Below are positions 44,252 to 64,000 of a DNA stretch of 64,000 bases, in pieces. Below the pieces are notes generated by a model. The model was not told where the DNA came from. It did no database searches and was given only the letters and a program-made list of their open reading frames with translations. Origin of the DNA: Dethiobacter alkaliphilus (lineage in GTDB: Bacteria; Bacillota; Dethiobacteria; DTU022; UBA8154); the NCBI GenBank assembly GCA_016841605.1, contig JAENYV010000001.1, forward strand, positions 165,553-229,552, read 5' to 3'. Both the position numbers and the translations under genes were made by a program. How positions within the stretch are numbered: position 1 is the stretch's first letter; the number at the start of each line of letters is the position of its first letter.

Positions 44252-44305
44252 TTGACACCCCTTGTTTATACATATATAATTTTCCTGTAGTGGTAAAAAA
44301 GACTA
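44252..44305 (+). promoter_or_regulatory. Conserved promoter/leader element, copy 1 (TTGACA-17-TATAAT + GTAGTGGTAAAAAAGACTA box)
   Basis: TTGACA 44252-57, 17-nt spacer, TATAAT 44275-80, then TTTCCTGTAGTGGTAAAAAAGACTATTTTT. Near-identical elements occur at 52732 and 57257. Confidence 0.7.
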
Positions 44306-44464
44306 TTTTTTTTGCCGCGCAGTTTAAATCCAAGAAGTCCGGTTGTTCGTTTTTTCTATATTATGAAGAAAGTAATATGGGAAAAATATGTTTTGCAAGC
44401 ATTATGCCTGTTCAGGCATAATGCGACAGATTTTGACGTTATAAAGATAAGGGGTGTCTGAATA

Positions 44465-47400
44465 ATGCTGATTACTAACAAAAATTGGTGGTACAGGCTC
44501 CTGCCGTCTATTTTGATTGTGCTCCTGCTTCCCTGTTTCTTCGGCCTGCCGGTACCGGCCGCTGTTCATTCCGAAGGGGGCATTGTTACAATAACAGAGC
44601 CCACCGGGAATATCAAGAATACCGTTAGCAAGGAAACAGCAAGCGGACCAGGCGGTTCGGCCGGCAACAATGTCACTTTTAAGGACCAGGTTCCCGTATT
44701 TTTGAACATGAATAATCCTGACGGTGTAACCGGGAAAGAAGTGTATGCAGGGCATACCTTATCCGGAACCGACGGCGCAACCCCCGCGGATACAGACAGC
44801 CGTGGATTTATCGTGGTAATGGATGAAGCCGGAATACCAGCTCCGGCTTTGACTGCCGATACCAGCGATAACCTGCTTGGGAAGTCCATAGATATTACCT
44901 TTACGGATAATGCCTCCTGGCGGGCGGCGATTAGCGGTGTGCTTGTGGACGGGGTAGCGCTGCAGTCCGGCAAATACACGGTAAGCGCCGGCAAAATCAG
45001 CATTTCCGGCAGCGTTTTCCAGGAATCGAAAGAATACGCCATTGTAGTTGCAGCCAATGGTTACACCGATGCAAGTGTGAGCCAGATAATCGGTACATTG
45101 ATAATTACCGGAGACGGGGTGACGGATCCCCAAATTTTTACGCAGCCCCAACTCGAGGCAATGCAGCCCCAGCTCGAGGAAATGGAGCCCCAGCATGTTG
45201 TTTACAGTTGCATTAATACCTGGCCCAGCAAGAAATGGTATGTGGGAAAAGGGGTCAAATTAGAAGACCTGCTCACCCAGGCGGGACTGAAAGAAACCGC
45301 CGAACAGATTAAATTCAGTTCCGTTGATGGCTACTATATGACGCTTACAGTCAAGGAGTTATTAACGGACAAGCGTTATTGTTTTCCCAATTTCAAAACC
45401 GGTGGCGACGGAGACGGGCATATTCCCGGTGACCCGTCGGGTGCATTCGAGGTGGAGACTATTCTAGGCCTGGTCAGCGCCGAGGGCACCGACGAATCTT
45501 CCTCTATGAACGATACAAATGCCCTGTTGCTGATGCTGGGGCAGCGGTCAGTTACCGAGCAAACAGGCCCCATATTTGTTAAATACGTCAATAAAATTGA
45601 AGTATTGACTGCTGCACCGGCTAAATGGGATAATCCGACGGCGAGCCCGGATAGTGGCATAGTATCTGCGGGGACCATGGTGGAACTGCATAGCAAGTAC
45701 AACGATTTGGATAAGGTCCATTATACGACGGACGGCAGTACTCCAACCATAGAAAGTCCCATGTATAACTGGATTGCCAGCCGGTGGTGGTCCTCGCGAC
45801 AGGATGTTAAGGACGAAATAAACCACCCGATTGAAATTACAAAGAACACCGCTATTAAGGCAATAGTAATCGGTCCAGGCAAAGAGGACAGCGATATTGT
45901 CACCTTCGAGTACCAGGTTCCTGTTATTATGAACACAGATAATCTTGCCGATGCAACCGAAAACGAAGCATACGCAGGTCATACCTTCACAGCGACAGGC
46001 GGAGCTGAGCCATACAGTTTTGCAGTAACTGCCGGGACACTGCCGGCAGGCATGGTTTTAAACGGTGCCGTATTGGAAGGAACGCCGACTGAGAGTGGGA
46101 CATTTCTCTTCACTGTAACCTTAACGGACAGTGCAGATCCCGCGGATGCAGACAGCCATGAGTTTACCCTGGCGGTTGATGAGGCTGAAGTAGTCACGCC
46201 GGTCTTGAATGCCGATACGACGGACAATAAAGTTGGACAGCCGATCGAGCTGACCTTTACGGATGATGGGCTCTGGCGTTCGGCGATTAGCGGTGTGTTT
46301 GTGGACGAAGTGGTGCTTCAGCCGGAGGAATACACGGTAAGCGCCGGTAAGATTAACATAGCTGCCGGAGTCTTCACGTCAGCAAAAGATTACAGTATCG
46401 TAGTGGAAGCCGAAGGGTACGAAGATGCGGCCGTGACGCAGATTATCACTACGTCGTCAACGCCGGAGACTAAGGAACCACCGGTTCTGACCGCCGATAG
46501 TAGCGATAACCTGAAGGGACGGCCGATCGAGCTGACTTTTACGGATGATGGGCTCTGGCGTTCGGCGATTAGCGGTGTGCTGGTGGACGAAGTGGTGCTT
46601 CAGCCGGAGGAATACACGGTAAGCGCCGGTAAGATTAACATAGCTGCCGGAGTCTTCACGTCAGCAAAAGATTACAGTATCGTAGTGGAAGCCGAAGGGT
46701 ACGAAGATGCGGCCGTGACACAGATTATCACTACGTCGTCAGCGCCGGAAACTAAGGAACCACCGGTTTTGACCGCCGATAATAGCGATAACCTGCTTGG
46801 GCAGGGTATAGATATTACCTTTACGGATGATGGCTCCTGGCGTTCGGCGATTCAAGAGGTTAGTGTGGACGGCGCGGTGCTTCAGCCGGAGAAATACACG
46901 GTTAGTGCCGGTAAGATTGCCATTGTTTCCGGCGTTTTCAAGGAATCGAAAGAATACGCCATCGTAGTTAAAGCAGGCGGGTACCCCGATGCAAGTGTGA
47001 GCCAAACGATTAATAGATTGGTAATTACAGGAGCCGGGGTGACTGAATCCAAGATGTTTACGCAGTCCCAGCTCGAAGCAATGTCGCAGCGCCAGTATGT
47101 GTACAGTTGCATCAATACCTGGCCCAGCAAAAAGTGGTATGTGGGAAAAGGGGTCAAATTGAGCGATCTGCTCACACAGGCGGGGATGAAGGGAAACGCC
47201 AAGCTCATTAAATTTTCTGCCGGCGATGGTTATGCCATGACACTTACTGTTCAGGAAATATTAACGGACAAGCGTTATCGTTTTCCTAATTTCAAGACCG
47301 GTGGCGATGGAGACGGGCATATTCCCGGCGATCCGTCGGGCAAAGTAGAGGTGGAAACTATTCTTGGGCTGGTCAGCGCCGAGGGCACGGACGACCCCTC

Positions 47401-49567
47401 TTATATGAACGACACAAATTCCCTGCTGCTGATGCTGGGACAGCGCTCAGTCATCGAGCAAACCGGCCCCTTATTTGTTAAAAACGTCAATAGAATTGAG
47501 GTACTTACTACTACTCCCGGCAAATGGGATACTCCAAAGGTGACTCCGAGTGGTGGAGAGGTGCCTGTTGGAACCATGGTGGAGCTGCACAGCCTTTTTG
47601 ACGACATGGATAAGGTTCATTACACGATGGACGGCAGTACTCCAACCATAGAAAGTCCCATGTATAACTGGATTGCCAGCCGATGGTGGTCTTCACGGGG
47701 CGAAGAAAAAGTAGCCGAGATTAATCACCCGCTTGAGCTGACAAAAGATACGGTAATCAAAGCAATCACAATTGGTTCCGGTAAGATGAACAGTGATGTT
47801 GTCACCTTTTCCTACAAGGTCAGAACAAGTGCGGACAGCAAAATTACCTCCGGAGAAGGCGGTACAATCAGCCTTGGAGAAGAAGCCGTTCTTGAAATAC
47901 CGGGAGGAGCGCTGACCGGAAGCGGAGCGAGGGAAGTAAAAATAGAACGTGTGGAAACAACTCTCTCGGCCCCGAAGGGCTTCAAGCTACTGGGTAGTGT
48001 ATATGAGTTCAGCGTGGGAGGCAAAAACAGCTACAATTTTGCCAAGAAAGTAACCATTAAGCTCAGCTTTGATGCCGGGGCTGTAAATGCGGACGAGACA
48101 CCGGCCATCCACTATTATGACGAAGCTGCCGGCGAGTGGATAAACCTGGGCGGGGAAGTAAGCGGGAATATAATTACTGTGCAGGTGGATCACTTTACTA
48201 AGTTTGCTGTTATTGCAGCCCTTCCCAGTACTGTGACTGTCAAAGTTGAGCCCCGCGAAGGGGGTACAGTAAGCCTTGGAGAAGAAGCTGTTCTTGCAAT
48301 ACCGGGAGGAGCGCTGACCGGAAGCGGAGCGAGGGAAGTAAAAATAGAACGTGTGGAAACAACTCTCTCGGCCCCGAAGGGCTTCAAGCTACTGGGTAGT
48401 GTATATGAGTTCAGCGTGGGAGGCAAAAACAGCTACAATTTTGCCAAGAAAGTAACCATTAAGCTCAGCTTTGATGCCGGGGCTGTAAATGCGGACGAGA
48501 CACCGGCCATCCACTATTATGACGAAGCTGCCGGCGAGTGGATAAACCTGGGCGGGGAAGTAAGCGGGAATATAATTACTGTGCAGGTGGATCACTTTAC
48601 TAAGTTTGCTGTTATTGCGGCGCTTCCCAGTACTGTGACTGCCAAAGTTGAGCCCCGCGAAGGGGGCACAGTAAGCCTTGGAGAAGAAGCTGTTCTTGCA
48701 ATACCTGAAGGAGCGCTGACCGGAAGCGAAGCACTGGAGGTAAAAATAGAGCGGGTGGTTGTACCTCCTGCTCCACCAGCGGGCTTCAAGCTGCTGAGCG
48801 ATATGTTTGATTTCAGTGTGGACGGCAAGAAGTGGTATCGCTTTGCCGGGGAAGTTACCATCAAGCTCAGCTTCGCTCCTGAGGTAAGAAAAGCGGAAGA
48901 GATCCCGGTTATTTATTGCTACGACGAATTCTCGCGGCGTTGGATAAACCTGGGCGGGGAGATAAACGGGACCACTGTTACTGTACAGGTGGACCACTTC
49001 ACCAAATTTGCCGTAATGGCAGCAATGGAGCAGGGATTGGCAGATATCGCCGGGCACTGGGCGGAATACAGTATTAAAGAACTGCTTACCCTTGGGGCTA
49101 TTAGCGGTTATCCGGACGGCACCTTTAAGCCCGACAAGATAATAACCAGGGCTGAATTTACCACAGTGCTGGCGAAGTCCTTTCAGCTTGAAAACAGGGG
49201 CGAAAAGACCTTTATCGACACTGAGGCACACTGGGCCAAAAATTACATAGCTGCGGCAGTAGCGGAGGGTATTGTCAATGGCTATGACACCGCGACCTTC
49301 GGACCGGATAATCCGGTCACCCGCGAGCAGATGGCTGTGATGACCGTCAAGGCGGCCAAAGTATCTCCGGAAGCAGGAGAGCCCCTCTTTGACGACAGCG
49401 GCAGTATCTCCGCGTGGGCCGGGGAAGCCCTGGTCACAGCGATGGAGAACGGGCTCATAGAGGAATATGCCGATAACACCGTCCGGCCTCAGAACAGTGC
49501 CACCAGGGCCGAAGCTGTTACAGTTATTGTGAATGCGTTGCATAAGGCGGGAGAGAGGAAAATATAA
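44465..49567 (+). CDS. Giant S-layer-homology (SLH) surface protein, 1700 aa, multi-module
   Basis: Signal peptide MLITNKNWWYRLLPSILIVLLL..AAVHS. Two super-modules each comprise He_PIG-like Ig (EAYAGHT..GG..PYSF..GTLPAG..L.G.L.GTPT), DUF1533/Shr-like repeats (LTADTSDN..G..I.ITFTDD..WR.AI), an Oxidored_molyb-like domain and CHB_HEX_C (VHYTTDGSTPT..SPMYN). These are followed by 3 x 134-aa repeats and 3 C-terminal SLH domains (AGHWAEYSIKELL.., EAHWAKNYIAAAV.., ISAWAGEALVTAM..). Confidence 0.9.
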   Translation: MLITNKNWWYRLLPSILIVLLLPCFFGLPVPAAVHSEGGIVTITEPTGNIKNTVSKETASGPGGSAGNNVTFKDQVPVFLNMNNPDGVTGKEVYAGHTLSGTDGATPADTDSRGFIVVMDEAGIPAPALTADTSDNLLGKSIDITFTDNASWRAAISGVLVDGVALQSGKYTVSAGKISISGSVFQESKEYAIVVAANGYTDASVSQIIGTLIITGDGVTDPQIFTQPQLEAMQPQLEEMEPQHVVYSCINTWPSKKWYVGKGVKLEDLLTQAGLKETAEQIKFSSVDGYYMTLTVKELLTDKRYCFPNFKTGGDGDGHIPGDPSGAFEVETILGLVSAEGTDESSSMNDTNALLLMLGQRSVTEQTGPIFVKYVNKIEVLTAAPAKWDNPTASPDSGIVSAGTMVELHSKYNDLDKVHYTTDGSTPTIESPMYNWIASRWWSSRQDVKDEINHPIEITKNTAIKAIVIGPGKEDSDIVTFEYQVPVIMNTDNLADATENEAYAGHTFTATGGAEPYSFAVTAGTLPAGMVLNGAVLEGTPTESGTFLFTVTLTDSADPADADSHEFTLAVDEAEVVTPVLNADTTDNKVGQPIELTFTDDGLWRSAISGVFVDEVVLQPEEYTVSAGKINIAAGVFTSAKDYSIVVEAEGYEDAAVTQIITTSSTPETKEPPVLTADSSDNLKGRPIELTFTDDGLWRSAISGVLVDEVVLQPEEYTVSAGKINIAAGVFTSAKDYSIVVEAEGYEDAAVTQIITTSSAPETKEPPVLTADNSDNLLGQGIDITFTDDGSWRSAIQEVSVDGAVLQPEKYTVSAGKIAIVSGVFKESKEYAIVVKAGGYPDASVSQTINRLVITGAGVTESKMFTQSQLEAMSQRQYVYSCINTWPSKKWYVGKGVKLSDLLTQAGMKGNAKLIKFSAGDGYAMTLTVQEILTDKRYRFPNFKTGGDGDGHIPGDPSGKVEVETILGLVSAEGTDDPSYMNDTNSLLLMLGQRSVIEQTGPLFVKNVNRIEVLTTTPGKWDTPKVTPSGGEVPVGTMVELHSLFDDMDKVHYTMDGSTPTIESPMYNWIASRWWSSRGEEKVAEINHPLELTKDTVIKAITIGSGKMNSDVVTFSYKVRTSADSKITSGEGGTISLGEEAVLEIPGGALTGSGAREVKIERVETTLSAPKGFKLLGSVYEFSVGGKNSYNFAKKVTIKLSFDAGAVNADETPAIHYYDEAAGEWINLGGEVSGNIITVQVDHFTKFAVIAALPSTVTVKVEPREGGTVSLGEEAVLAIPGGALTGSGAREVKIERVETTLSAPKGFKLLGSVYEFSVGGKNSYNFAKKVTIKLSFDAGAVNADETPAIHYYDEAAGEWINLGGEVSGNIITVQVDHFTKFAVIAALPSTVTAKVEPREGGTVSLGEEAVLAIPEGALTGSEALEVKIERVVVPPAPPAGFKLLSDMFDFSVDGKKWYRFAGEVTIKLSFAPEVRKAEEIPVIYCYDEFSRRWINLGGEINGTTVTVQVDHFTKFAVMAAMEQGLADIAGHWAEYSIKELLTLGAISGYPDGTFKPDKIITRAEFTTVLAKSFQLENRGEKTFIDTEAHWAKNYIAAAVAEGIVNGYDTATFGPDNPVTREQMAVMTVKAAKVSPEAGEPLFDDSGSISAWAGEALVTAMENGLIEEYADNTVRPQNSATRAEAVTVIVNALHKAGERKI
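46241..46804 (+). repeat. Near-identical 282-bp tandem duplication (2 units; DUF1533-like module)
   Basis: Anchor CCGATCGAGCTGAC occurs at 46241 and 46523. Both units encode PIELTFTDDGLWRSAISGV(F/L)VDEVVLQPEEYTVSAGKINIAAGVFTSAKDYSIVVEAEGYEDAAVTQIITTSS(T/A)PETKEPP. Confidence 0.9.
47861..49030 (+). repeat. 402-bp tandem repeat x3 (134-aa Ig-like module); units 1 and 2 almost identical, unit 3 diverged
   Basis: Anchor CGGGAGGAGCGCTGACCGGAAGCGGAGCGAGGG occurs at 47901 and 48303, with the diverged unit-3 counterpart (CTGAAGGAGCGCTGACCGGAAGCGAAGC) at 48705. Antisense ORFs 47812-48024 and 48190-48426 share identical translations, confirming DNA identity. Confidence 0.9.
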
Positions 49568-49620: not shown

Positions 49621-50205
49621 TTGAGTAAAATGTACCGGAAAAGAATTTCCTTTATAACAACTATAACAACGCTATCGTTATTGTTTTTTCTTCTAATGCT
49701 TTACCTTACGTTTTTGGCCGGATGTCAGGGTGGTCAGCCGACTTCAGCCGGAGAAGGTATTCTAGTAATACGGGGGGATGCTGTGGAAGGTGAAGTTTGC
49801 CTTACCCTGGATGAATTAAAGTCCATGGAGGACGGCCTGATTGAAGACGATTATTTTTCCGTTAATTCATACGGGACAAAGGAGTATTTTCATTTCAAGG
49901 GCATCTGGATCTGGCATGTTTTACAAGAAAAAACGGACTTAAAGGATAATGCCTCCAAGGTGACTTTCATTGCAGAGGACGGTTACACAGTGGAATACAC
50001 GCTGGAAGAGGTCAAGAGGGAAGATTATATTGACGAGCAAAATCCTGCGACAAAGTACAAGATGATCCTGGCCTGGGAAGAAAATGGAAAAGAGTATGAT
50101 CCGGATGAAGGCAATCCCTTTCAACTGGTCGTCGGTCAAAAGGAGCCGGGTGATGAAAACAAACCATACTGGGTGCGCAATGTAAAGACCATCCGCATTG
50201 ATTGA
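49621..50205 (+). CDS. Small lipoprotein with divergent Oxidored_molyb-like domain
   Basis: Signal peptide plus lipobox (LTFLAGCQG). LVIRGDAVEGEVCLTLDELKSM...FIAEDGYTVEYTLEEV...PFQLVVGQ...WVRNVKTIRI parallels the cassette of the large proteins (L.ITGDGV....T...LE.M....DGY..TLTV.E.L....LMLGQ....FVK.VN.IEV). The start may be the ATG at 49630. Confidence 0.7.
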   Translation: MSKMYRKRISFITTITTLSLLFFLLMLYLTFLAGCQGGQPTSAGEGILVIRGDAVEGEVCLTLDELKSMEDGLIEDDYFSVNSYGTKEYFHFKGIWIWHVLQEKTDLKDNASKVTFIAEDGYTVEYTLEEVKREDYIDEQNPATKYKMILAWEENGKEYDPDEGNPFQLVVGQKEPGDENKPYWVRNVKTIRID

Positions 50206-50261: not shown

Positions 50262-51344
50262 GTGGAAGAAAAAATGAAAAAACATAAGAACTATTACCTG
50301 AGCAATCGGGATCTGCTTATTGTTGCTGTTTTGAGCGGTATCGGAGGAGTGATGAGTACCTATATCGGCTATCTGGGCAATCTCCTGAACCGTATTTGCG
50401 GTGTTCCTTTCGGTGCGGGACAGTTCGTCTCCGGTTTGCATATTTTCTGGTTTATCCTGGTGGCGGGGCTGATCAGGCGACCGGGAGCTGTTACCGTCGC
50501 GGGTCTGCTCAAAGGAGTAATTGAATTGCTCACCGGCAGTACCCACGGGGTTGTCATTGTCTTGATTTCTCTGATACAGGGTCTTATCGTCGATGTTGTC
50601 CTTCTGATTGCCAGGCGCCGGAATTTGGGAAGCTATATGCTGGCCGGCGGGCTTTCCGCCGCCTCAAATGTTTTTGTCTTTCAGCTCCTCTACTTTTCCG
50701 GTGTCCCTTTCACCTATCTTCTCTTTATAGGACTTTTAGCCTTTGTTTCCGGAGTTCTTCTGGCAGGCAGCTTTGGTCACAGTGTGCTGGATATTGTGTT
50801 GCAGGCCAGGCCTTTTCGTTTGGCCGATGCTTCAAGGGAAGAGACAGCCGCAACAGCCGCGACCCCCGGGAGCAAAAAAAGAGTCCTCCCCCGTTTAAGG
50901 ATTGCTGCAACGGTTCTACTGGTTGTGCTGTTTTTTATTGGTGCGGTTTATTACTTTACCGCTGTCTTTGAACCTCCCTGGGTAGGCCCCAGCTGCCGGG
51001 TAGAAGGAGCGGTAGAAAACCCCCTCTCTTTCCAGCTTTCCCGTTTCGACCGGTATGAAACAACCATAACCGCCGAATTAAAGGGGCAGGTTAGCTACAT
51101 CCCTCCGCAGGAGTATACAGGCATCCCCTTAAGTATAATTCTCCAGGAGGCCTCTCCCCTGGATGAGGCTAAAAAGCTTAAAGTTATGGCAACGGATGGT
51201 TATATGGTGGAATTTGAACTGCAAGAAGTGTTAAATGACGACCTGATGGTACTGATCCGGGAAGAAGATATGCTTCGCCTTATAGCCGGAAATTACGAAG
51301 GAGGATACTGGGTGAAACTGGTAAACAGAATGATAGTGGAATAA
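50262..51344 (+). CDS. Polytopic membrane protein: ECF-transporter-S-component-like N-domain fused to divergent Oxidored_molyb-like C-domain
   Basis: About 6 TM helices (LSNRDLLIVAVLSGIGGVMSTYIGY..GAGQFVSGLHIFWFILVAGL..LLKGVIELLTGSTHG..) plus a 7th TM. The extracytoplasmic part reads CRVEGAVENPLSFQLSRFD...VMATDGYMVEFELQEV...YWVKLVNRMIVE. Confidence 0.65.
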   Translation: MEEKMKKHKNYYLSNRDLLIVAVLSGIGGVMSTYIGYLGNLLNRICGVPFGAGQFVSGLHIFWFILVAGLIRRPGAVTVAGLLKGVIELLTGSTHGVVIVLISLIQGLIVDVVLLIARRRNLGSYMLAGGLSAASNVFVFQLLYFSGVPFTYLLFIGLLAFVSGVLLAGSFGHSVLDIVLQARPFRLADASREETAATAATPGSKKRVLPRLRIAATVLLVVLFFIGAVYYFTAVFEPPWVGPSCRVEGAVENPLSFQLSRFDRYETTITAELKGQVSYIPPQEYTGIPLSIILQEASPLDEAKKLKVMATDGYMVEFELQEVLNDDLMVLIREEDMLRLIAGNYEGGYWVKLVNRMIVE

Positions 51345-55643: not shown

Positions 55644-57122
55644 ATGCAAGCTGATAAAAGGAAAGGGGAGACACCCCCGGCATATCCGCCGGAATCTTCT
55701 CAGTTAAAGAGATGGATTTACAGGTCCATGATGATTGTCCTGGGTATGTTAATGCTGGTAAGTATGTTTTACATGCCGTTGCCCGCGGTTGTCCATGCCG
55801 CGACGGACTCGCTGGAAATTACCGGAGACGGGGTGACGGACCCGCTGACCCTGACCCTGACCCAGTTAGAGGAAATGGAGCAATACCAGTATACATACAG
55901 TTGTATTAACACGTGGCCTACCAAAAAATGGTATGTAGGTAAAGGAGTTAAATTGAGCGATCTGCTCGCCAGGGCGGGGATGACCGATGAGGCCAGGCTG
56001 CTTAAATTTACGGCTGTCGACGGTTACACAGTGACGCTTACGGTCAAGGAACTGTTAAAAGATAAGCGTTATCGTTTTCCCAATTTCAAGAGCGGTGGCG
56101 GCGATGGTGACGGGCATACTCCGGGCGATCCTTCGGGTCAGGTGGAGGTAGTGACGATTATCGGCCTGGTCAGCGTCGAAGGCAGCGATAATCCCCAGTA
56201 TATGAACGATCTGAATACTTTGCTGTTGATGCTGGGGCAGCGTGCTGTAACTGAGCAGACAGGAAACCTTTTCGTTAAATATCTGAACAAGATCGAAGTA
56301 CTTACGGACGAGCCGGAAAAATGGGATGCACCGCAGGCCAATCCGGACAGTAGCACAGTGCCCGCGGGAACCATGGTGACACTGAGCAATCTCCACAATG
56401 ATGACGACAAAATTTATTATACCACGGACGGCAGTGAGCCGACCCGGAACAGCCCCATGTATAACTGGATTGCCAAGCGCTGGTGGTCATCACGGGCGGA
56501 TGTACTGGGAACCATCAATCACCCTATCGGACCCATTGAGAAAGATACAATCATCAAGGCGGTTACCATCGGACCCGGTAAAGCGGACAGCGATGTCGTT
56601 ACCTTCAAATATCAGGTTTCCGGGGCTGAGCCGGACAACGGGACATCAACGTCAACAGTCACACCCGGTCCGGAAGAGTCTGAGACAACAGAAGAACACG
56701 GGACAGATGAAATGAAAGGCGAAGTACCCGGGAAACCGTCGCAAAAAATTATCAAGCTTGCCATTGACCGGATGGAAGCGGATATTGACGGCAATACCTG
56801 CGCTCTGGAGGCAGCACCTTATCTCAACACCGAGGTCGGTCGTGTCCTGGTTCCGGTACGGTTTGTCAGCGAAGCCCTGGGTGCCGGAGTTAATTGGAAC
56901 CCGGAAAAAGGACAGATAACCGTCACCGATGAAGGAAAAGAAATTCTCCTGACCCTCGGTTCCGGCAATGTTCAGATCAACGGTATACCGCAGGCCGTTG
57001 ATTGTGTTCCGGTTACACTCCCGCCCGGCCGTACTTTTATCCCCCTCCGCTTTGTGAGTGAGACCCTTGGAGCGAAGGTGGGCTACAAAGCAGAGACCGG
57101 AGAGATCACCATCACAAGATAG
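55644..57122 (+). CDS. Envelope protein: signal/TM - Oxidored_molyb-like - CHB_HEX_C - T/E-rich linker - copper-amine-oxidase-N-like wall-binding domain
   Basis: The cassette runs LEITGDGVTDPLTLTLTQLEEM..YSCINTWPTKKWY..IYYTTDGSEPTRNSPMYN. The C-terminus reads VLVPVRFVSEALGAGVNWNPEKGQITV....TFIPLRFVSETLGAKVGY, the typical Cu_amine_oxidN1 repeat pair. Confidence 0.8.
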   Translation: MQADKRKGETPPAYPPESSQLKRWIYRSMMIVLGMLMLVSMFYMPLPAVVHAATDSLEITGDGVTDPLTLTLTQLEEMEQYQYTYSCINTWPTKKWYVGKGVKLSDLLARAGMTDEARLLKFTAVDGYTVTLTVKELLKDKRYRFPNFKSGGGDGDGHTPGDPSGQVEVVTIIGLVSVEGSDNPQYMNDLNTLLLMLGQRAVTEQTGNLFVKYLNKIEVLTDEPEKWDAPQANPDSSTVPAGTMVTLSNLHNDDDKIYYTTDGSEPTRNSPMYNWIAKRWWSSRADVLGTINHPIGPIEKDTIIKAVTIGPGKADSDVVTFKYQVSGAEPDNGTSTSTVTPGPEESETTEEHGTDEMKGEVPGKPSQKIIKLAIDRMEADIDGNTCALEAAPYLNTEVGRVLVPVRFVSEALGAGVNWNPEKGQITVTDEGKEILLTLGSGNVQINGIPQAVDCVPVTLPPGRTFIPLRFVSETLGAKVGYKAETGEITITR

Positions 57123-57150
57123 TTCTTTCTTACAATCAGGCCTTAACACT

Positions 57151-57256: not shown

Positions 57257-57310
57257 TTGACACCCCTTGTTTTTCCTATATAATTTAGTTGATTGGTAAA
57301 AAAGCCAACT
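57257..57310 (+). promoter_or_regulatory. Conserved promoter/leader element, copy 3
   Basis: TTGACA 57257-62, 16-nt spacer, TATAAT 57279-84, then TTAGTTGATTGGTAAAAAAGCCAACTTTTT. The spacer CCCCTTGTTT is identical to copy 1. Confidence 0.65.
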
Positions 57311-57439: not shown

Positions 57440-57740
57440 CCTTCGAGGAGAGATGTTCGCAGGGACCATGGTGGAATTGAGTTCTCTTGAGGCCTTGATG
57501 GATAGTCTGTTGAAGGTAGTTTTTCCGTGGACGGGGGATGGGAGCATAAGGCAATGCTTAAAGCTTCTGATGAGGATAATCCTCCGGATAAACTGACGAC
57601 ATCGTGAAAATTATGTCGGTAGTTGTTTGCAGTAGTATTTGCATCGGCTATTTATTGTTAGGAAGATCCCGGCCTGGCAGAGAGCTCAGTAGTTTAAAAT
57701 TATTGGACGGGAGGTGACATAAGTCCCGGAGATACGTATC
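57440..57740 (+). pseudogene. Degenerate relics of a second exbB-like 3' end and DUF2149-like gene
   Basis: 57486-57517 (CTTGAGGCCTTGATGGATAGTCTGTTGAAGGT) aligns with the intact CTGGAGGCCTTAATGGAGAGCCTATTGGAGGT at ~55253. 57705-57737 (GGACGGGAGGTGACATAAGTCCCGGAGATACGT) aligns with GGACGGGAGGTGACGGAAGTCCCGGAGTTACGT at ~55480. No intact ORF is present. Confidence 0.6.
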
Positions 57741-57783: not shown

Positions 57784-60700
57784 ATGCAAACAGTAAAAAA
57801 AAGATGGTGGTACAGGCTTGTACCATCCATCCTGAGTGTGCTGATGATCGTCTGTTCGTTCGGCATGGCGGCACCTGCGGCTGTTTATGCTGTGGACGAT
57901 ATTGAACCTCCTGCCTGGCCGGCAGAGAGCGAATTAACCGCGGATGTCTGCGGCAGCAGTGTGACCTTGAGCTGGCCTGCGGCAACCGATAACGTAGGGG
58001 TTGTCTGCTACGAGGTTTATAAAAACGACGGTCTCATTGATACGGTGACCGGTGCCACTCAGAGAAGCTGCACTGTCTCCGGACTCGATCCTTCTGTCTA
58101 CACCTTCGGCGTACAGGCTGTGGATGACGCCGGCAATCACAGCGAAGCCTTAACGGCCGACGCCACCGTAGAAGCCGTTGCCCTTACAGTTACCGGAGAC
58201 GGTGTAGAGACTCCCATGACCTTTAGCATGACCGATCTACAGGAAATGGAACAGTACCAGCATTTGTACAGTTCAATTAACACCTGGCCCACCAAAAAAT
58301 GGTATGCCGGAGAGGGCGTCAAGCTGACGGACCTTTTAGCCTCCGCCGGAATTAAGGATGAAGCCACGCTGATTACCGTAAAAGCAACTGATGGTTATAG
58401 AATGACGTTTACCCGTCAAGAACTGGTGGAGGACCCCCGCTATTATTATCCGGGTTTGAGAGAAAATGCGGAATATGACGGATCTATACCGGGCTCTCCG
58501 GAGGGGGCGCAGCAGGTGGAGACCATCATAGCACTGCGCAGCGCACAAAGCAATAGCTTAGCAAATATGAATACATCCGATGCTCTGCATTTGCTGATGG
58601 GGCAGAGGTGGGTTACCGAACAAACCAACAACGCGTTTGTGAAACATACCGGGACAATTGAAGTCTCTACTGAGGCCCCGGAAAAATGGGCAAATCCCAT
58701 CGCAGATCCGCCGTCCGGGATTGTGCCCGCGGGGACCGGGGTAATTTTTGACCCTGTCAATATAAATGACATGGACGGGGCCAATTTCCATTATACCACG
58801 GACGGCAGTGATCCTACTTTTGAGAGTCCCATGTATAACTGGATTAAATACCGGTGGTGGTTTAATCGCCCTGACGACCTGCCGATTATAAACCATCCCA
58901 TTAACGTAGACAAAAGTATGACAATTAAAGCGGTGGCTATCGGTTTTGGCAGGGAGGATAGCGATATCCTTACTTTCAATTACCAGGTTCCTCTGCTCAT
59001 TGACACCGGTAATCCTGCCAATGCAACCGAGAACGAAGCCTATGCGGGTCATACCTTTATAGCGGCAGGCGGAGTAGAACCGTACAGTTTTGCGGTAACT
59101 GAGGGAACACTGCCGGCAGGTATGGAACTGAACGGTGCGATATTGGAAGGAACACCGACGGCAAGCGGGACATCTGTTTTCACTGTAACCGTAACCGACA
59201 GTGCAAATCCTGCGAATACAGGCAGCCATGAGTTTACCATGGTGGTAGACGAAGCGGGCGCAGCACCGCCGGCCTTGACCGCCGATACTAGCGATAACAA
59301 AGTCGGACAGGCCATAGATATCACCTTTACCGACGATGCGGCCTGGCGGGCGGCTGTCGGCGGAATAAAAGTCAATGATACTGATTTAAACGGCGAGCAG
59401 TATACACTTGGCGAAGGTAACATCAATATTATTGCCGACGTATTCACCGCTGCCGGTGATTACGTAATTACGGTCCAGGCAACGGGATATGTCGATGCCG
59501 CAGTAACCCAGACCGTAACAGTTGCATCTTCGGACCCGGACGATTTTTATGTATACCAGGGTATATTGGTAGCATACTACGGTTCCGGTGGTGATGTGAT
59601 CATTCCGGATAATTTAGATATAACCGGCATTGGGGGGAGTGCGTTTAGTAATTTAACCAGCCTGACCTCCATAAGCATCCCCGAAGGAGTCACCAGCATT
59701 GACAATAGTGCCTTTCGTGACTGCAGCAACCTGGTTTCAGCCGTCATTCCCGGCACCATTACCAGCATTGGAAACGGTATTTTTTATGATTGCAGCAGCC
59801 TGACTTCGGTCACTATCTTCGAAGGAGTCACCGGCATTGGAGAGCAAATGTTTCGAAATTGTACCAGTCTGGCCTCGCTAACTATCCCCAATAGCGTTAC
59901 CGGTATTGGAGAAAATGCCTTTCTCGACTGCAGCGGCTTGACCTCGCTAACTATCCCCGGCAGCGTTACCGACATTGGCGAAGGTGCCTTTAGAGGTTGC
60001 AGCGGCCTGACTTCGCTAAGTATCCCCGGCAGCGTTACCAGTATGGGAAGGTATGCCTTTCGCGATTGCACTAGCCTGACCTCAGTTACTATCTCTGAAG
60101 GTGTTACCGACATTGGAGAGGATGCTTTTAACGGTTGTAGCGGTCTGACTTCGATAGCTATCCCCGGCAGTGTTACCGGCATTGGAGAAAGTGCCTTTAG
60201 CGGTTGCAGCGGCCTGACTTCAGTCACTATCTCTGAAGGTGTTATTAGCATTGGAGAAGATGCTTTTAGCGGTTGCAGCGGCCTGACTTCAGTTACTATT
60301 CCCGGTAGTGTCACCAGTATTGGAACTAGTGTCTTTAATGTGTGTACCAGTTTGACAACAATTAATGTAAATCCAAGTAACCTCAATTATACCGGTGATG
60401 GTGGGGTATTGTTCAATAAGCTTTTAACAGTACTTGAATGCTATCCGGCTGGAAAAACAGGGGAATATATTGTGCCTGACGGCGTTGAAGCTATTGGCGA
60501 AAGTGCTTTTTCTTCTTGCATCAACCTGGGCTCGCTAGTTTTTCCCGATAGTGTCACCAGCATTGGAGAGTATGCCTTCCGTAACTGTAGCGGCCTGACT
60601 GCGGTTACTATTCCCGGCAGCGTTACCAGTATGGGAAGATATGCTTTTAGAGGTTGCAGCGGCCTGACTTCACTTACTATCTCCGAAGGAGTCACCAGCA

Positions 60701-63700
60701 TTGGAGAGTATGCCTTCCGTGACTGTAGCGGCCTGACTGCGGTTACTATTCCCGGCACTATCACCAGCTTTGAGGATGATGCCTTCCAAGACTGCACTAG
60801 CCTGACTTCGGTCACTATTTCTGAAGGAGTTACCAGCATTGGGAGTGGTGCCTTCAATGGCTGCACTAGCCTGACCACGGTAACTATCCCCAACAGCGTT
60901 ATCAGCATTCAATCTAATGCATTTTCCGGCTGCAGCAGCCTGAATTCGGTAACTATCCCCAACAGCGTCACCATCATTGATACTTATGCGTTTTATGGCT
61001 GCAGTAACCTGAGTTCGTTTACTATCCCTGAAGGTGTCACCGGTATTGGAAGAGCTACGTTTTCCGGCTGCAGCAGCCTGAATTACGTAACTATCCCCGA
61101 AAGCGTTACCATCATTGACAGGGATGCCTTTAAAGACTGCGTCAGTCTGACTTTTATAAATATCCCCGATAACGTCACCAGCATAGGGAGATCTGCCTTT
61201 CAAGGTTGCACCGGCTTTAGTTTGGTTACTATTCCCGGTAGCGTCACCAGTATTGATAGAGATGCCTTTTCCGGATGCAGTAATTTAACATCCATAAATA
61301 TTCCCGAAAGCGTTACCACTATTGGAAGTAATGTGTTCAGCGGATGCAGTAGCTTAACCGTATACGGTTATGACGGTTCCTATGCGCAGAGCTATGCCTC
61401 CGACAATAGTATTCCCTTTGAAGTTATCAGCGGAGCGTTCGCACCGGTCTTGACCCCCGATACTAGCGATAACAAAGTCGGACAGGCCATAGATATCACC
61501 TTTACCGACGATGCGGCCTGGCGGGCGGCTGTCGGCGGAATAAAAGTCAATGATACTGATTTAAACGGCGAGCAGTATACACTTGGCGAAGGTAACATCA
61601 ATATTATTGCCGACGTATTCACCGCTGCCGGTGATTACGTAATTACGGTCCAGGCAACGGGATATACCGATGCCGTAGTAATCCAGACCGTAACAGTTGC
61701 ATCTTCGGACCCGGACGATTTTGTAGTAAACGAGGGTATTCTGTCAGCATACCAGGGTTCCGGCGGTGATGTGATCATTCCGGATAATCTGGGTATAACC
61801 GGCATTGGGGAAGCTGTGTTTGAAAATTTAATAAGCCTCACTTCGATAATTATTCCCGAAGGAGTTACCACCATTGGAGCCAGCGCCTTTCGTGGCTGCA
61901 GCAACCTGGGCTCCATAACTATTCCCGCCGGCGTTACCAGTATTGGAATTGGCGCTATTCGTGATTGCAGCAGTCTGACCTCGGTAACGATTCCCGAAGG
62001 GGTTGAGGATATCGGAAGCTATGCCTTCAGAGGTAGCAACCTGAGCTCCATAACTATTCCCGGCAGTGTCGCCGGTATTGGGAATAGTGCTTTTCGTGAG
62101 TGCAGCAACTTAAGTTCGGTGATCCTCTCCGAAGGAGTTAGCACCATGGGAACTTATGTCTTTAGCGAGTGCACTAGCCTGAGCTCCATAACTATTCCCG
62201 GCAGCGTTACCAGTATTGGAAGTCGCATGTTCAACGGTTGCAGCAGCCTGACCTCGGTAACCCTCTCCGAAGGGGTTGAGGAGATTGGAACTTATGTATT
62301 CTGGAATTGCAGCAGTCTGAGTTCCATAAGTATCCCCGGCAGCGTTACGAGCATTGGCAATTCAGCCTTTGGCGGCTGCACCGGCCTGATCTCCGTTATT
62401 ATTCCCGACAGCATTACCAGTCTGGGAACTAGCATCTTCAGCGGTTGCAGCAATTTGACAGAAGTAACTCTTCCCGACAACCTTACCGGTTTACCGAATA
62501 GTTTGTTTAAAGACTGCAGCAGCCTGATCACAGTAAATATCCCGGAAAGCGTTACGAGCATTGGAGACAGTGTCTTTTCCGGCTGCAGCAGCCTGACTTC
62601 CATAAATATTCCCGATAGTGTTACCTCTATATTGGGCAGTGCCTTTTATAATTGCAGCAGCCTGACTTCTATAAATATTCCTGACAACATTACCGATATT
62701 GCAGGATATCTGTTTTACAATTGTACCAGTCTAGTTTCCATAACCATCCCGGACAATGTTACCGGTATAGGATTTTATGCTTTTAAAAATTGCACCAATT
62801 TAAGCTCCATTATCATCCCCAGTAGTGTCAGCAACATTGCAAATGATGCTTTTCAAGAGTGCAGTAGCTTAACCATATACGGTTATGAAGGCTCTTATGC
62901 GCAGAGCTATGCCTCTGCCAACAGTATTCCTTTTGTAGCGATAGATCCCGTAATCTGGTATGTTGATGACTCCGGCAGCGCCGACTTTACCGCCATACAG
63001 GCAGCCGTGACAGCTGCCGACGCCGGTGATACCATCATTGTAAAAGACGGTACCTATACTGAGAACGTGGTTGTGGATAAAAGTCTGGTTATTCAGTCCG
63101 AAAACGGGGCGGAGCTGACTATTGTCCGGGCGGCCGCTTCAAATGCCGATGTCTTCAAGGTGACAGCAGAGAACGTTACCATTGACGGCTTTAGCATAAC
63201 CGGAGCAACGTCAATGGGGAAATCAGGTATTGCAGTCTTTGGTTCGACCAGTGGCTCCTGCACTATTATTAATAATCAGTGCAGCGAGAACAATCAAGGA
63301 ATAACCATTGAAGCACTGACAACAGATAATACGGTTGCCGATAACATCTGTACTCTCAGTGGCAGATACGGCATTTATCTGTCAAACACAACCGGCAACA
63401 TCATAACCGGTAACACTTGCTCAAACAACACGGCTAGCTCCGGTTTTGCTCTCTATCTGGCGGATAATGCTGATAATAATACTGTTAATGATAACATCAC
63501 AGACTCAAATAACATCGGTATACGGGTTAAAAACGCAGACTCTAATTTGCTCTTTAACAACACCTCCTCAAACAATAACTACGGCCTGGAAATTGCCACC
63601 GGCTCTCTAGACAATGTTTTTTACCTGAACAATTTTGTGGGAAATACCAGTAGTCAGTTATCCCTGGGGTACGGTGCGGTGGCCGGTAATTTCTGGAACT

Positions 63701-64000
63701 CCCAGACGGAACAGACCTACACGTTCAATGAAACTCAGTATACCGGTCAAGTGGGCAACTACTGGAGCGACTATACCGGTACGGATGCGGATAGTAACGG
63801 CATCGGTGATACGCCATACGGGACATTCACGAACGAGTATGACAACTATCCTTTGATGGGGCAATGGGAGAACGGCGTTATCACTGTGACCGAACCAACG
63901 CCGGTTTATTCAGTTCTTCCCGTAGCCGATGATGCTTATACTATTGGGACAACACCGGAAGGCATCAAAACCATGACCGTAAATGAAGGTAAAACAGGAT
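57784..64000 (+). CDS. Giant surface protein (at least 2072 aa, 3' end off-window): SP - FN3 - Oxidored_molyb-like - CHB_HEX_C - He_PIG - DUF1533 - BspA-type LRR block - DUF1533 - LRR block - NosD/PbH1 beta-helix
   Basis: It is not in the ORF track because no stop occurs before the window end. I translated frame 1 at lines 58141, 58201, 58261, 59581, 60361, 60421, 62941, 63601 and 63961 and found no stops. ATG 57784 lies 10 nt after AAAGGAG. The N-terminus MQTVKKRWWYRLVPSILSVLMIV..AAVYA is paralogous to the 44465 signal peptide. The 23-aa LRR unit is (LTS(V/I)TIP.SVTSIG..AF.GCS). The beta-helix part reads GDTIIVKDGTYTENVVVDKSLVIQSE... with N-rich turns. Confidence 0.85.
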   Translation, partial: MQTVKKRWWYRLVPSILSVLMIVCSFGMAAPAAVYAVDDIEPPAWPAESELTADVCGSSVTLSWPAATDNVGVVCYEVYKNDGLIDTVTGATQRSCTVSGLDPSVYTFGVQAVDDAGNHSEALTADATVEAVALTVTGDGVETPMTFSMTDLQEMEQYQHLYSSINTWPTKKWYAGEGVKLTDLLASAGIKDEATLITVKATDGYRMTFTRQELVEDPRYYYPGLRENAEYDGSIPGSPEGAQQVETIIALRSAQSNSLANMNTSDALHLLMGQRWVTEQTNNAFVKHTGTIEVSTEAPEKWANPIADPPSGIVPAGTGVIFDPVNINDMDGANFHYTTDGSDPTFESPMYNWIKYRWWFNRPDDLPIINHPINVDKSMTIKAVAIGFGREDSDILTFNYQVPLLIDTGNPANATENEAYAGHTFIAAGGVEPYSFAVTEGTLPAGMELNGAILEGTPTASGTSVFTVTVTDSANPANTGSHEFTMVVDEAGAAPPALTADTSDNKVGQAIDITFTDDAAWRAAVGGIKVNDTDLNGEQYTLGEGNINIIADVFTAAGDYVITVQATGYVDAAVTQTVTVASSDPDDFYVYQGILVAYYGSGGDVIIPDNLDITGIGGSAFSNLTSLTSISIPEGVTSIDNSAFRDCSNLVSAVIPGTITSIGNGIFYDCSSLTSVTIFEGVTGIGEQMFRNCTSLASLTIPNSVTGIGENAFLDCSGLTSLTIPGSVTDIGEGAFRGCSGLTSLSIPGSVTSMGRYAFRDCTSLTSVTISEGVTDIGEDAFNGCSGLTSIAIPGSVTGIGESAFSGCSGLTSVTISEGVISIGEDAFSGCSGLTSVTIPGSVTSIGTSVFNVCTSLTTINVNPSNLNYTGDGGVLFNKLLTVLECYPAGKTGEYIVPDGVEAIGESAFSSCINLGSLVFPDSVTSIGEYAFRNCSGLTAVTIPGSVTSMGRYAFRGCSGLTSLTISEGVTSIGEYAFRDCSGLTAVTIPGTITSFEDDAFQDCTSLTSVTISEGVTSIGSGAFNGCTSLTTVTIPNSVISIQSNAFSGCSSLNSVTIPNSVTIIDTYAFYGCSNLSSFTIPEGVTGIGRATFSGCSSLNYVTIPESVTIIDRDAFKDCVSLTFINIPDNVTSIGRSAFQGCTGFSLVTIPGSVTSIDRDAFSGCSNLTSINIPESVTTIGSNVFSGCSSLTVYGYDGSYAQSYASDNSIPFEVISGAFAPVLTPDTSDNKVGQAIDITFTDDAAWRAAVGGIKVNDTDLNGEQYTLGEGNINIIADVFTAAGDYVITVQATGYTDAVVIQTVTVASSDPDDFVVNEGILSAYQGSGGDVIIPDNLGITGIGEAVFENLISLTSIIIPEGVTTIGASAFRGCSNLGSITIPAGVTSIGIGAIRDCSSLTSVTIPEGVEDIGSYAFRGSNLSSITIPGSVAGIGNSAFRECSNLSSVILSEGVSTMGTYVFSECTSLSSITIPGSVTSIGSRMFNGCSSLTSVTLSEGVEEIGTYVFWNCSSLSSISIPGSVTSIGNSAFGGCTGLISVIIPDSITSLGTSIFSGCSNLTEVTLPDNLTGLPNSLFKDCSSLITVNIPESVTSIGDSVFSGCSSLTSINIPDSVTSILGSAFYNCSSLTSINIPDNITDIAGYLFYNCTSLVSITIPDNVTGIGFYAFKNCTNLSSIIIPSSVSNIANDAFQECSSLTIYGYEGSYAQSYASANSIPFVAIDPVIWYVDDSGSADFTAIQAAVTAADAGDTIIVKDGTYTENVVVDKSLVIQSENGAELTIVRAAASNADVFKVTAENVTIDGFSITGATSMGKSGIAVFGSTSGSCTIINNQCSENNQGITIEALTTDNTVADNICTLSGRYGIYLSNTTGNIITGNTCSNNTASSGFALYLADNADNNTVNDNITDSNNIGIRVKNADSNLLFNNTSSNNNYGLEIATGSLDNVFYLNNFVGNTSSQLSLGYGAVAGNFWNSQTEQTYTFNETQYTGQVGNYWSDYTGTDADSNGIGDTPYGTFTNEYDNYPLMGQWENGVITVTEPTPVYSVLPVADDAYTIGTTPEGIKTMTVNEGKTG
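59262..59547 (+). repeat. Dispersed direct repeat, copy A (DUF1533-like module), 2175 bp from copy B
   Basis: By eye, 59284-59490 is identical to 61459-61665 (207 bp), with few mismatches in the flanks. Antisense ORFs 59049-59447 and 61392-61622 share an identical 55-aa N-terminal translation. Confidence 0.85.
61437..61722 (+). repeat. Dispersed direct repeat, copy B
   Basis: See copy A. The offset is exactly 2175 bp (725 codons), so the frame is preserved. Confidence 0.85.

Follow-up and report, generated by a model that had tools for sequence, protein, structure and literature searches.

In the heme relays of Gram-positive bacteria, Isd and Shr/Shp/Hts, one binding module is placed at successive depths of the envelope, and a lipoprotein together with a membrane transporter forms the inner end of the chain. 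We have analysed a locus of similar design at positions 44,252 to 64,000 of a 64,000-nt stretch of the Dethiobacter alkaliphilus genome (GenBank assembly GCA_016841605.1, contig JAENYV010000001.1, positions 165,553 to 229,552 of the forward strand; the whole stretch is called the window below). Here, surface proteins with different anchors carry a two-domain cassette whose first domain is a small relative of the sulfite oxidase (SUOX) fold, and the same type of domain (mini-SUOX) is found in a lipoprotein and in an energy-coupling factor (ECF) S component. Shr-type HID (DUF1533) domains are also present in several of the carriers. Unlike in the Isd and Shr systems, however, the repeated module is SUOX-like and not NEAT, the transporter is an ECF and not a type II ABC importer, and the anchors are S-layer homology (SLH) domains, a stalk and transmembrane (TM) helices and not sortase linked. 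The locus further differs in including a stator driven by the proton-motive force (pmf) and in belonging to a Mo/W-cofactor regulon and not an iron regulon, and the transfer of ligand between carriers is something that we infer here.

The individual components also have described relatives. PruR, which binds pterins in the periplasm of Proteobacteria (PDB 7kom, 7kos, 7kou, and 7rkb), is, like the mini-SUOX domains, small, secreted, and of degenerate SUOX fold with a truncated Cys hairpin. PruR stands alone and signals together with the diguanylate cyclase/phosphodiesterase DcpA in Gram-negative bacteria, whereas the domains here are fused to an ECF S component, a lipoprotein, or Ig-like modules, and the locus contains no DcpA-type GGDEF/EAL gene. 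The orthologs of the mini-SUOX domains are, unlike PruR, under the control of a molybdenum cofactor/tungsten cofactor (Moco/Tuco) riboswitch, and pterin binding is in their case a prediction. With the catalytic proteins SorA, SoxC, and YedY/MsrP, the domains have the fold and the motifs GVPL..lL..AG and LRL..G...G.YWVK in common, and in SorA the SUOX domain is likewise followed by an Ig-like domain. In contrast to these enzymes, the domains have no conserved Cys ligand, are about half the size, lack the twin-arginine signal, and occur as many paralogs on structural surface proteins.

The S component is homologous to that of YkoEDC and the group I ECF importers, and a fused EcfAA' and a CbiQ-type T component are encoded downstream of it in the orthologous loci. 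By definition, an ECF system works with no binding protein outside the cytoplasm. Unlike YkoE, the S component described here has a seventh TM helix, an extracytoplasmic domain of the ligand-binding type, and a dedicated lipoprotein, and its orthologous systems have a Moco/Tuco riboswitch where YkoEDC has a thiamine pyrophosphate (TPP) riboswitch. As in ExbB-ExbD-TonB, TolQRA, and HmuTUV, a MotA_ExbB protein is combined with a small partner that has an Asp in its single TM helix. The same Pfam pair, MotA_ExbB and DUF2149, is found in HmuU and HmuV, which are part of a heme operon of Bacteroidota and are thought to energise import through the outer membrane (PMC10434189, PMC11681262). One of the carriers, g52907 (genes are named here by their start position in the window), resembles TonB in combining a TM anchor with a Pro/acid-rich spacer and a binding domain at the far end, but the anchor is C-terminal, the reverse of TonB. 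Unlike the hosts of ExbBD and Hmu, the bacteria concerned are Firmicutes with SLH and lipobox anchoring, and neither an outer-membrane receptor gene nor CobN/HmuS is found in the locus. Each type of component is known and the overall design resembles the Gram-positive heme relays, but the combination of an S component with a fused binding domain, PruR-like wall domains, a Firmicute stator with no outer-membrane receptor gene, and Tuco riboswitch control is unprecedented. The initial annotation, made from the letters of the window, knew of no system of this composition, and a full-text literature search (DUF2149; Moco riboswitch plus ECF; Moco salvage or uptake; tungsten plus the relevant genera) gave no description of one either. 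Papers on flavinylation and ECF export did not mention the system or SUOX-like partners.

Our main finding is that the locus is the local version of two conserved gene modules that belong to the Mo/W-cofactor regulon. The comparison set consisted of 21 species-representative loci and ten metagenomic or genomic contexts (designated by L numbers), and both modules recur in it across Peptococcia, Syntrophomonadia, and Dethiobacteria. Module A has the order lipoprotein, ECF-S fusion, fused EcfAA' (~510 aa), and EcfT (CbiQ), with an optional purple acid phosphatase (PAP)-like gene in front and an optional APH-type kinase gene behind, and most of the ~20 orthologous loci of sufficient length show the four core genes in this order. 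Module B consists of an optional cassette-SLH gene, the gene for a cassette/Big_2 protein with a C-terminal TM helix (cassette-TM), the ExbB-like gene, the DUF2149 gene, the cassette-stalk gene, and optionally a giant HID/NosD gene. Its core order, from cassette-TM to cassette-stalk, is kept in L001, L006, L013, L023, L030 (Desulfoscipio gibsoniae), and L031, and in L017, L019, and L028 the cassette-stalk gene is found at the very end of the flanking sequence retrieved. Modules A and B adjoin each other in at least five genomes (L001, L006, L013, L023, and the genome of L011/L031). The PAP-like metallophosphoesterase was found in 12 distinct loci (L001, L010, L011/L031, L013, L015-L017, L019, L021, and L028-L030) and is at times fused to SLH, HID, or CHB_HEX_C domains, while the APH-type kinase gene follows EcfT in L006, L011, L014, and L026. 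TupABC, MoeA, ModD, and molybdopterin oxidoreductase are neighbours in some genomes; in L006, ModD is encoded downstream of the ECF operon and is followed by a ModE-like helix-turn-helix (HTH) protein, a molybdopterin oxidoreductase, and MoeA. The initial annotation had proposed to test whether cassette proteins, ExbB/DUF2149, ECF-S fusions, and modD occur together, and in several classes the first three do. modD was rejected as a general partner and is treated as a weak link, since it is present only in the window and in L006.

The evidence for the regulon comes from riboswitches of the Moco/Tuco class (RF01055), which in the related loci reach 59-83 bits in an Rfam scan with a gathering score of 36. 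They directly precede these operons in seven related genomes, and in two of the seven this includes the ExbB/DUF2149 operon. They are located directly before the ECF-S gene in L004 and L029, before SLH/SUOX-HID genes in L029, before the SUOX-SLH, PAP, lipoprotein, and S genes in L001, and before the giant, PAP, lipoprotein, and S genes in L017. Tandem riboswitches precede the series PAP, cassette, cassette-TM, ExbB, DUF2149, and cassette-stalk in D. gibsoniae (positions 1401-1947 of L030) and the same series, with no PAP gene, in L031 (positions 3432-3776), where a further riboswitch precedes a giant HID/PKD/NosD gene. In L014 and L026, riboswitches are found before the neighbouring tupA-like genes. 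The P3 hairpin is lacking in all three aptamer alignments shown, and the remaining aptamers are likewise short, with 116-122 nt compared to the 135 positions of the model. This P3-lacking form of the Moco aptamer has been tied to the tungsten cofactor (PMC2408646, PMC11725836), and Syntrophomonas wolfei has at least 15 such motifs, some before "genes of unknown function" and some in tandem arrangements (PMC2408646). Downstream of most aptamers there is a hairpin with a U-run, which is consistent with control by termination, and each of the tandem aptamers of L030 and L031 is followed by its own terminator-like hairpin. Because Moco/Tuco riboswitches head the orthologous operons, modules A and B, stator included, belong to the Mo/W-cofactor regulon, which gives strong independent support to the link with Mo/W or a pterin cofactor that had been suggested from the window. 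Since these riboswitches control the cluster in related genomes, it is probable that the system scavenges the Mo/W cofactor or its metal.

In the window, module A is represented by a lipoprotein gene and the S gene. The lipoprotein (49621..50205, +; 194 aa) has the lipobox LAGC and a single mini-SUOX domain (Pfam 29.1 bits), and its gene directly precedes the S gene in most orthologous loci that cover this position. The S fusion (50262..51344, +; 360 aa) is a member of the YkoE family (PF09819, 72 bits) and matches the sequence of the YkoE structure 5EDL with an E value of 9e-12, which bears out its first description as an ECF-S-like polytopic protein. According to its AlphaFold (AF2) model (pLDDT 82), six TM helices are joined through a disordered linker in the cytoplasm to a seventh TM helix, which leads to a mini-SUOX domain of ~120 aa outside the cytoplasm, and the membrane part matches 5EDL with a TM-score of 0.76 and an rmsd of 2.1 (Foldseek). 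The fusion family is tight, with 57-81% identity between members from Syntrophomonadaceae, Desulfotomaculaceae, Desulfitobacteriaceae, Dethiobacteria, and Thermovorax. A thiamine/hydroxymethylpyrimidine transporter, which the YkoE homology could have indicated, was rejected as the main reading, as TPP riboswitches were found neither in the window nor in any scanned locus and the loci yielded Moco-type riboswitches in their place.

EcfAA' and EcfT are absent from the 64-kb window, as are the PAP and the APH kinase, and the ECF entry point that had been recognised here is therefore incomplete, with the S component present and EcfAA'T missing. An orphan fragment of the second cassette domain (CHB_HEX_C; 51357..51653, +; 99 aa), a sixth cassette-related copy that had been overlooked in the initial annotation, matches the five cassettes with E values of 1e-15 to 1e-21. 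Its reading frame is that of the S gene, from whose TAA stop it is separated by 12 nt, and it has no start codon. Taken together, the S C-domain, the stop, and the fragment align colinearly to one complete cassette (tblastn, 51009-51650, E 3e-23). The fragment is probably a scar of recombination or rearrangement at the position that EcfAA' and EcfT occupy in other genomes. It is followed by modD (quinolinate-phosphoribosyltransferase-like; 51698..52543, -), which was correctly placed inside the locus from the start (TIGR01334, 218 bits with a cutoff of 179).

The cassette is present five times in four surface proteins and aligns over its full length with pairwise identities of 48-74%. The copies find each other in tblastn searches with E values of 1e-89 to 1e-121, far exceeding chance, and their redrawn boundaries lie within ~15 nt of those first given. 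Cassettes 1 (45089-45934, +) and 2 (47009-47830, +) are both in a 1,700-aa S-layer-anchored carrier (g44465; 44465..49567, +), which also contains four Shr-like HID (DUF1533) domains, He_PIG, and three SLH domains. Three near-identical tandem repeats of ~115 aa, containing …GGTVSLGEEAVLAIPGGALTGSGAREVKIERV…FTKFAVIAALPS, are located between cassette 2 and the SLH domains (~47900-49000) and matched no Pfam family. Cassette 3 (53033-53851, +) is in the 582-aa g52907 (52907..54655, +), where it is followed by Big_2, an acidic/Pro-rich spacer, and a C-terminal TM anchor. Cassette 4 (55803-56627, +) is combined with a Cu_amine_oxidN1 "stalk" wall domain in a 492-aa protein (g55644; 55644..57122, +). 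This cassette-stalk protein is the most conserved carrier, with 70-82% identity across families, and was found in Sporotomaculum, Pelotomaculum, Desulfoscipio gibsoniae, Desulfofalx, Tepidanaerobacteraceae, and Natronincolaceae, among other hosts. An exhaustive search gave 126 clusters (50% identity) at E<=1e-30, so the family is real but restricted. Cassette 5 (58174-58998, +) is part of a giant carrier of >2,072 aa (57784..64000, +) with fn3, He_PIG, HID, two BspA-type leucine-rich repeat (LRR) blocks, and a NosD/beta-helix region, which exits the window; its analogue in L031 is the HID/PKD/NosD gene with its own Moco riboswitch.

Domain searches agreed with what had been read from the letters about these proteins. 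The different anchors of the carriers (polytopic membrane domain, lipobox LAGC, C-terminal TM helix, Cu_amine_oxidN1, and three SLH domains) were all verified, and LRR_5 and NosD domains were found in the giant protein, which had been described as an LRR/beta-helix protein running off the window. CHB_HEX_C_1/Fn3_assoc was matched in 5/5 cassettes. Oxidored_molyb (PF00174) was seen in all carriers, and its gathering score was reached by four of the six, g55644 (35.1 bits), g44465 (29.4 bits), the lipoprotein g49621 (29.1 bits), and the ECF-S fusion g50262 (24.5 bits), but not by g52907 (21.1 bits) or the giant gene (18.7 bits). The lipoprotein and the S fusion are the two proteins that had been singled out as bearing divergent first-domain copies.

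Structure models identify the first domain. A model of cassette 4 built from 48 homologs (pLDDT 94.6) matched SorA in a Foldseek search of the PDB with an E value of 2e-9 and also plant and chicken sulfite oxidase, SoxC, and YedY, and it covered PruR almost fully with a target TM-score of 0.64-0.66. The C-domain in the model of the S fusion likewise matched SorA, SoxC, YedY, and PruR, including the neopterin complex 7rkb. Both models gave a Foldseek probability of 1.0 to SorA, SoxC, YedY, and the plant and chicken enzymes, and the target TM-score to PruR ranged from 0.58 to 0.66 across the two. The sequence profile of the S C-domain reached SoxC (E 3e-7) and SorA (E 1e-4), with GVPL..LL..AG and LRL..G..G.YWVK aligned. 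When the profile of the cassette was compared to PDB sequences, the CHB_HEX_C part alone was matched, and the lipoprotein profile gave only marginal matches to SorT, aligned to the SorT motif ILAWEMNG..PLRMVV. Because of the Foldseek matches of both models and the S C-domain profile reaching SoxC and SorA, the SUOX/YedY fold proposed initially for the first domain is established.

The canonical Moco site of this fold, which the initial annotation had proposed to check, is not retained as judged from the sequences. The mini-SUOX domains have 120-165 aa, about half of a catalytic Moco domain, and the S C-domain is ~19 aa shorter than SorA in the Cys-bearing segment between SorA residues 91 and 130 and has no Cys. 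The candidate Cys column of the cassette, placed by motif alignment, is variable among 48 sequences (C20/A12/S10/T4/V2) although its flanks are invariant and it sits inside the otherwise invariant motif YS-x-INTWPTKKW, and there is no Cys at the hairpin position of the lipoprotein or the S C-domain. By inspection, the signal peptides of the carriers have no twin-arginine motif. The small size, the shortened Cys segment, the variable Cys column, and the missing twin-arginine motif indicate that the mini-SUOX domains, as judged from their sequences, are not canonical molybdoenzymes. The motifs DGY and (Y/L)(W/F)VK are invariant in 3/3 sub-families and align to LDGP and YWVK of SorA. PruR is a degenerate SUOX fold with no Mo-ligating Cys that binds non-Moco pterins, in a site composed of a Tyr/Trp sandwich, an Asn contact, and a PW motif (PMC11194511). 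By analogy, the mini-SUOX domains would be ligand binders rather than enzymes. They may be binders of a pterin-type Mo/W cofactor species, as they descend from Moco-binding proteins, the small proteins most closely related to them bind pterins, and the riboswitch recognises a molecule of this class.

The ExbB/TolQ-like and DUF2149/ExbD-like genes that had been noticed between two carriers are both borne out by Pfam. The first (54662..55333, +) encodes an ExbB/TolQ/MotA-like predicted proton-channel protein with three TM helices (PF01618, MotA_ExbB, 35.9 bits), and the second (55287..55619, +) a DUF2149 (HmuV-like) protein with a single TM helix (PF09919, 36.9 bits). The TM segment of the latter, VINIVDAMLVFACGL, bears an Asp within the helix (IVDAMLVF) and the architecture is like that of ExbD/TolR, but no Pfam match to ExbD (PF02472) was obtained even at E<=10. 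The ExbB-like protein has >5,000 relatives; among the 120 matches listed, identities are 70-100% and the named relatives are from Peptococcia, Syntrophomonadales, Dethiobacteria, and unclassified Bacillota. A gene of the g52907 type directly precedes the ExbB-like gene in 6/6 loci that bear the pair (L001, L006, L013, L023, L030, and L031), and the C-terminal TM helix of g52907 and its tail K-x-Y-x-EY-x-KEL are conserved in seven orthologs. This adjacency, the conserved TM helix and tail, and the TonB-like spacer suggest that the stator acts on the g52907-type carrier, which would make g52907 a candidate force-transducing partner, an "inverted TonB." The relics of a second pair that had been described before the giant gene, and that lie in its leader (57477..57737, +), hold up at the DNA level as a decayed second ExbB 3' end and DUF2149. 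They consist of two colinear blastn matches (57477-57539, 78% over 63 nt, and 57704-57737, 91% over 34 nt; E 2e-9 each) that keep the spacing of the intact genes, while the tblastn matches are weak.

Taken as an acquisition system of the Mo/W-cofactor regulon that is built on an ECF importer, this reading of the locus is one that we hold with good confidence, while we give the specific mechanism of pterin salvage, the most likely one, an even chance. In this mechanism, the locus would be a local form of an envelope system conserved in anaerobic Firmicutes, which acquires a cofactor-related nutrient when the cofactor is scarce. The cassettes on the surface would capture a pterin-type Mo/W cofactor species, such as molybdopterin (MPT) or tungstopterin, a precursor, or a dephosphorylated derivative, coming from lysed neighbours. 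The extracellular purple-acid-phosphatase-like enzyme would trim the captured species, which would then be handed to the lipoprotein and on to the domain of the S component, imported by the ECF module, and re-phosphorylated by the cytoplasmic APH-type kinase. A phosphatase outside, an ECF importer, and a kinase inside would follow the standard logic of salvage for phosphorylated cofactors. Module B would place cassettes at differing depths, in the S-layer (SLH), the wall (stalk), the membrane (C-terminal TM helix), and on very long LRR/HID proteins, and these carriers could pass the ligand inward as NEAT proteins do with heme. The ExbB-like/DUF2149 stator would use the pmf for a conformational change in the TM-anchored carrier, resulting in release or hand-over. 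The relay and the coupling to the stator are suggested by gene order, anchoring depths, and the conserved C-terminal TM anchor, and the substrate and the direction of transfer are likewise proposals. In its most complete form, a monoderm, riboswitch-controlled salvage of Moco/Tuco or a precursor by PruR-like capture, phosphatase, ECF import, kinase, and powered hand-over through an "inverted TonB," the idea is tentative and we would not count on it.

Several points weigh against the salvage of a pterin cofactor or, for the window itself, against the regulon. To our knowledge no bacterial Moco importer has been described, Moco and MPT are chemically labile, and YkoE itself binds thiamine. No riboswitch was found in the window, either at the Rfam gathering score over the 64 kb or at E<=1 in 36000-58500, and no Moco riboswitch was found in L027, which is 95% identical to the window. 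With no EcfAA'/T, PAP, or APH kinase in the window, the local system may be partial or depend on genes elsewhere. Conservation of the pterin pocket is read from motifs only, a role for ExbB/DUF2149 in a bacterium with no outer membrane would be unprecedented, and a simple salvage model leaves the redox chemistry of the FMN_bind and NapH-like proteins in D. gibsoniae unexplained. In Eubacterium limosum, iron transporters and W enzymes are under Tuco riboswitches as well (PMC11725836), and regulon membership does therefore not fix the substrate.

Other substrates and functions have to be considered, and among these the capture of the metal itself survives best, although we find it unlikely. In this explanation, the mini-SUOX domains bind tungstate or molybdate or forms of low availability such as thio-metalates or complexed W/Mo, and the ECF importer takes up the metal, supplementing TupABC and ModABC in sulfidic, metal-poor habitats. 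Metals are known substrates of other ECF-type systems (Cbi/Nik), the active sites of SUOX proteins accept oxyanions, as seen for sulfate in the chicken sulfite oxidase entry 2a9a, and the redox proteins of D. gibsoniae could process metal species. The riboswitch class is shared with tupA-like genes, which are adjacent in L014 and L026, and modABC as well as a regulator with a TupA-like domain are present in the window; against this, the genomes already own dedicated high-affinity Tup/Mod systems. The S component is of the vitamin (YkoE) type and not the CbiM/NikM type, a phosphatase outside and a kinase inside would be pointless for the uptake of an oxyanion, and the closest small structural relatives bind pterins and not oxyanions (PMC11194511).

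The D. gibsoniae locus L030 (270-292 kb of CP003273; locus positions 17921-21383) encodes a 533-aa FMN_bind + SUOX-like protein with no hairpin Cys and, like the former between the lipoprotein gene and an unfused S gene, a membrane protein with NapH-like Fer4_5 and FMN_bind domains. These genes suggest that in some species an extracytosolic, flavin-based electron path is joined to the system.

The same two proteins would fit a second explanation, in which the cassettes are extracytoplasmic redox enzymes with Moco/Tuco, similar to MsrP/YedY, and the ECF S component and the lipoprotein export or insert the cofactor in analogy to EetB/FmnA. Moco riboswitches are known before genes for enzymes that use Moco (PMC2408646), the layout of the cassette mirrors the Moco domain and Ig-like domain of SorA, and cofactor export of the ECF type has a precedent in FAD for extracytosolic flavinylation (PMC9973259). 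Yet the Mo-ligand Cys is not conserved and the hairpin is truncated in 3/3 sub-families, a catalytic SUOX Moco domain is twice as large as these domains, a twin-arginine motif was not seen by inspection, unlike in the Tat-exported MsrP and SorA, and the phosphatase/kinase pair fits import and not export, all of which makes this explanation quite improbable. An analogy to the ECF exporter EetB in particular was rejected, as EetB is in a different Pfam family (PF07456).

A third explanation is that another nutrient, such as iron, heme, or another tetrapyrrole, is taken up by a Hmu/Shr-like route that is merely co-regulated with the demand for W cofactor. Here, the MotA_ExbB and DUF2149 pair would correspond to HmuU and HmuV of the Bacteroidota heme operon, PF07550 takes its name from the Shr domain that interacts with hemoglobin, the window has a Peripla_BP_2/FecCD/ABC operon upstream of the locus, and two "Fe ABC" transporters of E. 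limosum are under Tuco riboswitch control (PMC11725836). We consider it very unlikely, since CobN/HmuS was looked for in the window and not found, no HmuS/CobN, HmuR, HmuY, or NEAT domain is present among the scanned window proteins, several carriers and module A have no HID domains, and the recurring and most conserved element is instead the SUOX-like domain, which is related to binders of Moco or of pterins. That the carriers are ordinary surface adhesins or S-layer paralogs beside ECF, ExbB, and mod genes by chance would agree with their generic surface modules (SLH, LRR_5, Big_2, He_PIG, and beta-helix) and with carrier numbers and architectures that differ between genomes, but is hardly credible given a gene order kept across several classes, cassette-stalk orthologs that are 70-82% identical across families, unusually high for adhesins, and the riboswitch control common to the loci and the shared promoters of the window.

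These promoters are the three best sigma-70 matches of the region, and one is located before each of the three carrier operons: P1 (44252..44280, +; TTGACA-17-TATAAT, 12/12 consensus positions), P2 (52732..52760, +; 11/12), and P3 (57257..57284, +; 12/12). They are embedded in near-identical blocks of ~60 nt (44243-44300, 52723-52785, and 57247-57310, with a partial copy at 32899-32935), which have TTGACA-N16/17-TATAAT and the common downstream sequence ..TGGTAAAAAAGAC/GCC.., and the -35 region is seen again before the Peripla_BP_2/FecCD operon. No operator was identified in the shared blocks, and their near identity suggests either co-regulation or duplication along with the paralogs. A candidate W/Mo-responsive regulator of the region, as judged from its domains, would be the product of 31662..32828 (+), a ModE-type HTH fused to a TupA-like domain (Pfam HTH_1 and PBP_like_2), which matches the riboswitch-controlled TupA-like protein of L014 with a phmmer E value of 1.8e-51. 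The molybdate/tungstate ABC transporter genes modA, modB, and modC are found at 39531..41958 (+; TIGR01256 modA 95 bits, BPD_transp_1, ABC_tran). The initial annotation had placed modABC and a ModE-type regulator immediately upstream of the locus; both are present but neither is adjacent, as a radical-SAM gene and a 390-aa gene lie between modC and the locus and the regulator is 11.6 kb upstream.

Of the genes flanking the locus in the window, the radical-SAM gene (within 42029-44177) is AmmeMemoRadiSam-like with 159 bits, under the cutoff of 220, its 390-aa neighbour in the same interval has no Pfam or NCBIfam match, and the pair is also present in the close relative L027. Between the regulator and modABC (31662-39452), there are genes for Peripla_BP_2/FecCD/ABC-ATPase, a methyltransferase, SBP_bac_6, a CobW/HypB-like GTPase, and an odd ABC-ATPase-like protein, an arrangement reminiscent of the "Fe ABC" transporters that Tuco riboswitches control in Eubacterium limosum (PMC11725836). 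Farther away, a class II lanthipeptide synthetase-like gene (20277-23546, -; 1,089 aa) has DUF4135 and LANC_like domains, and the left end of the window (111-6246) has a tellurite-resistance-type cluster with StiP/PELOTA_1, a YceG-domain protein, and TelA.

In conclusion, the existence of a dedicated system of up to ~30 kb that responds to the cofactor implies that acquisition in its hosts extends beyond TupABC and ModABC. Syntrophic oxidisers of fatty acids and propionate rely on formate dehydrogenases and aldehyde oxidoreductases that contain tungsten or molybdenum. Such syntrophs, among them Syntrophomonas, Pelotomaculum, and relatives of Desulfotomaculum, are often rate-limiting in anaerobic digestion, and little is understood of how they are supplied with W/Mo or pterin cofactor in habitats that are sulfidic and poor in metals. 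An S component with a fused binding domain and a stator in a cell with no outer membrane would both extend the paradigms of transport, and a testable function is now offered for the "unknown" Moco-riboswitch genes reported since 2008, for DUF2149/HmuV, and possibly for ModD. Should the complete and tentative version of the salvage mechanism be true, the system would be the first bacterial importer of Moco/Tuco and the first TonB-like energised capture in a Gram-positive envelope. With a pterin species as its substrate, the system would give bacteria their first route of Moco/Tuco uptake, and cross-feeding of the cofactor in syntrophic consortia would become directly testable.

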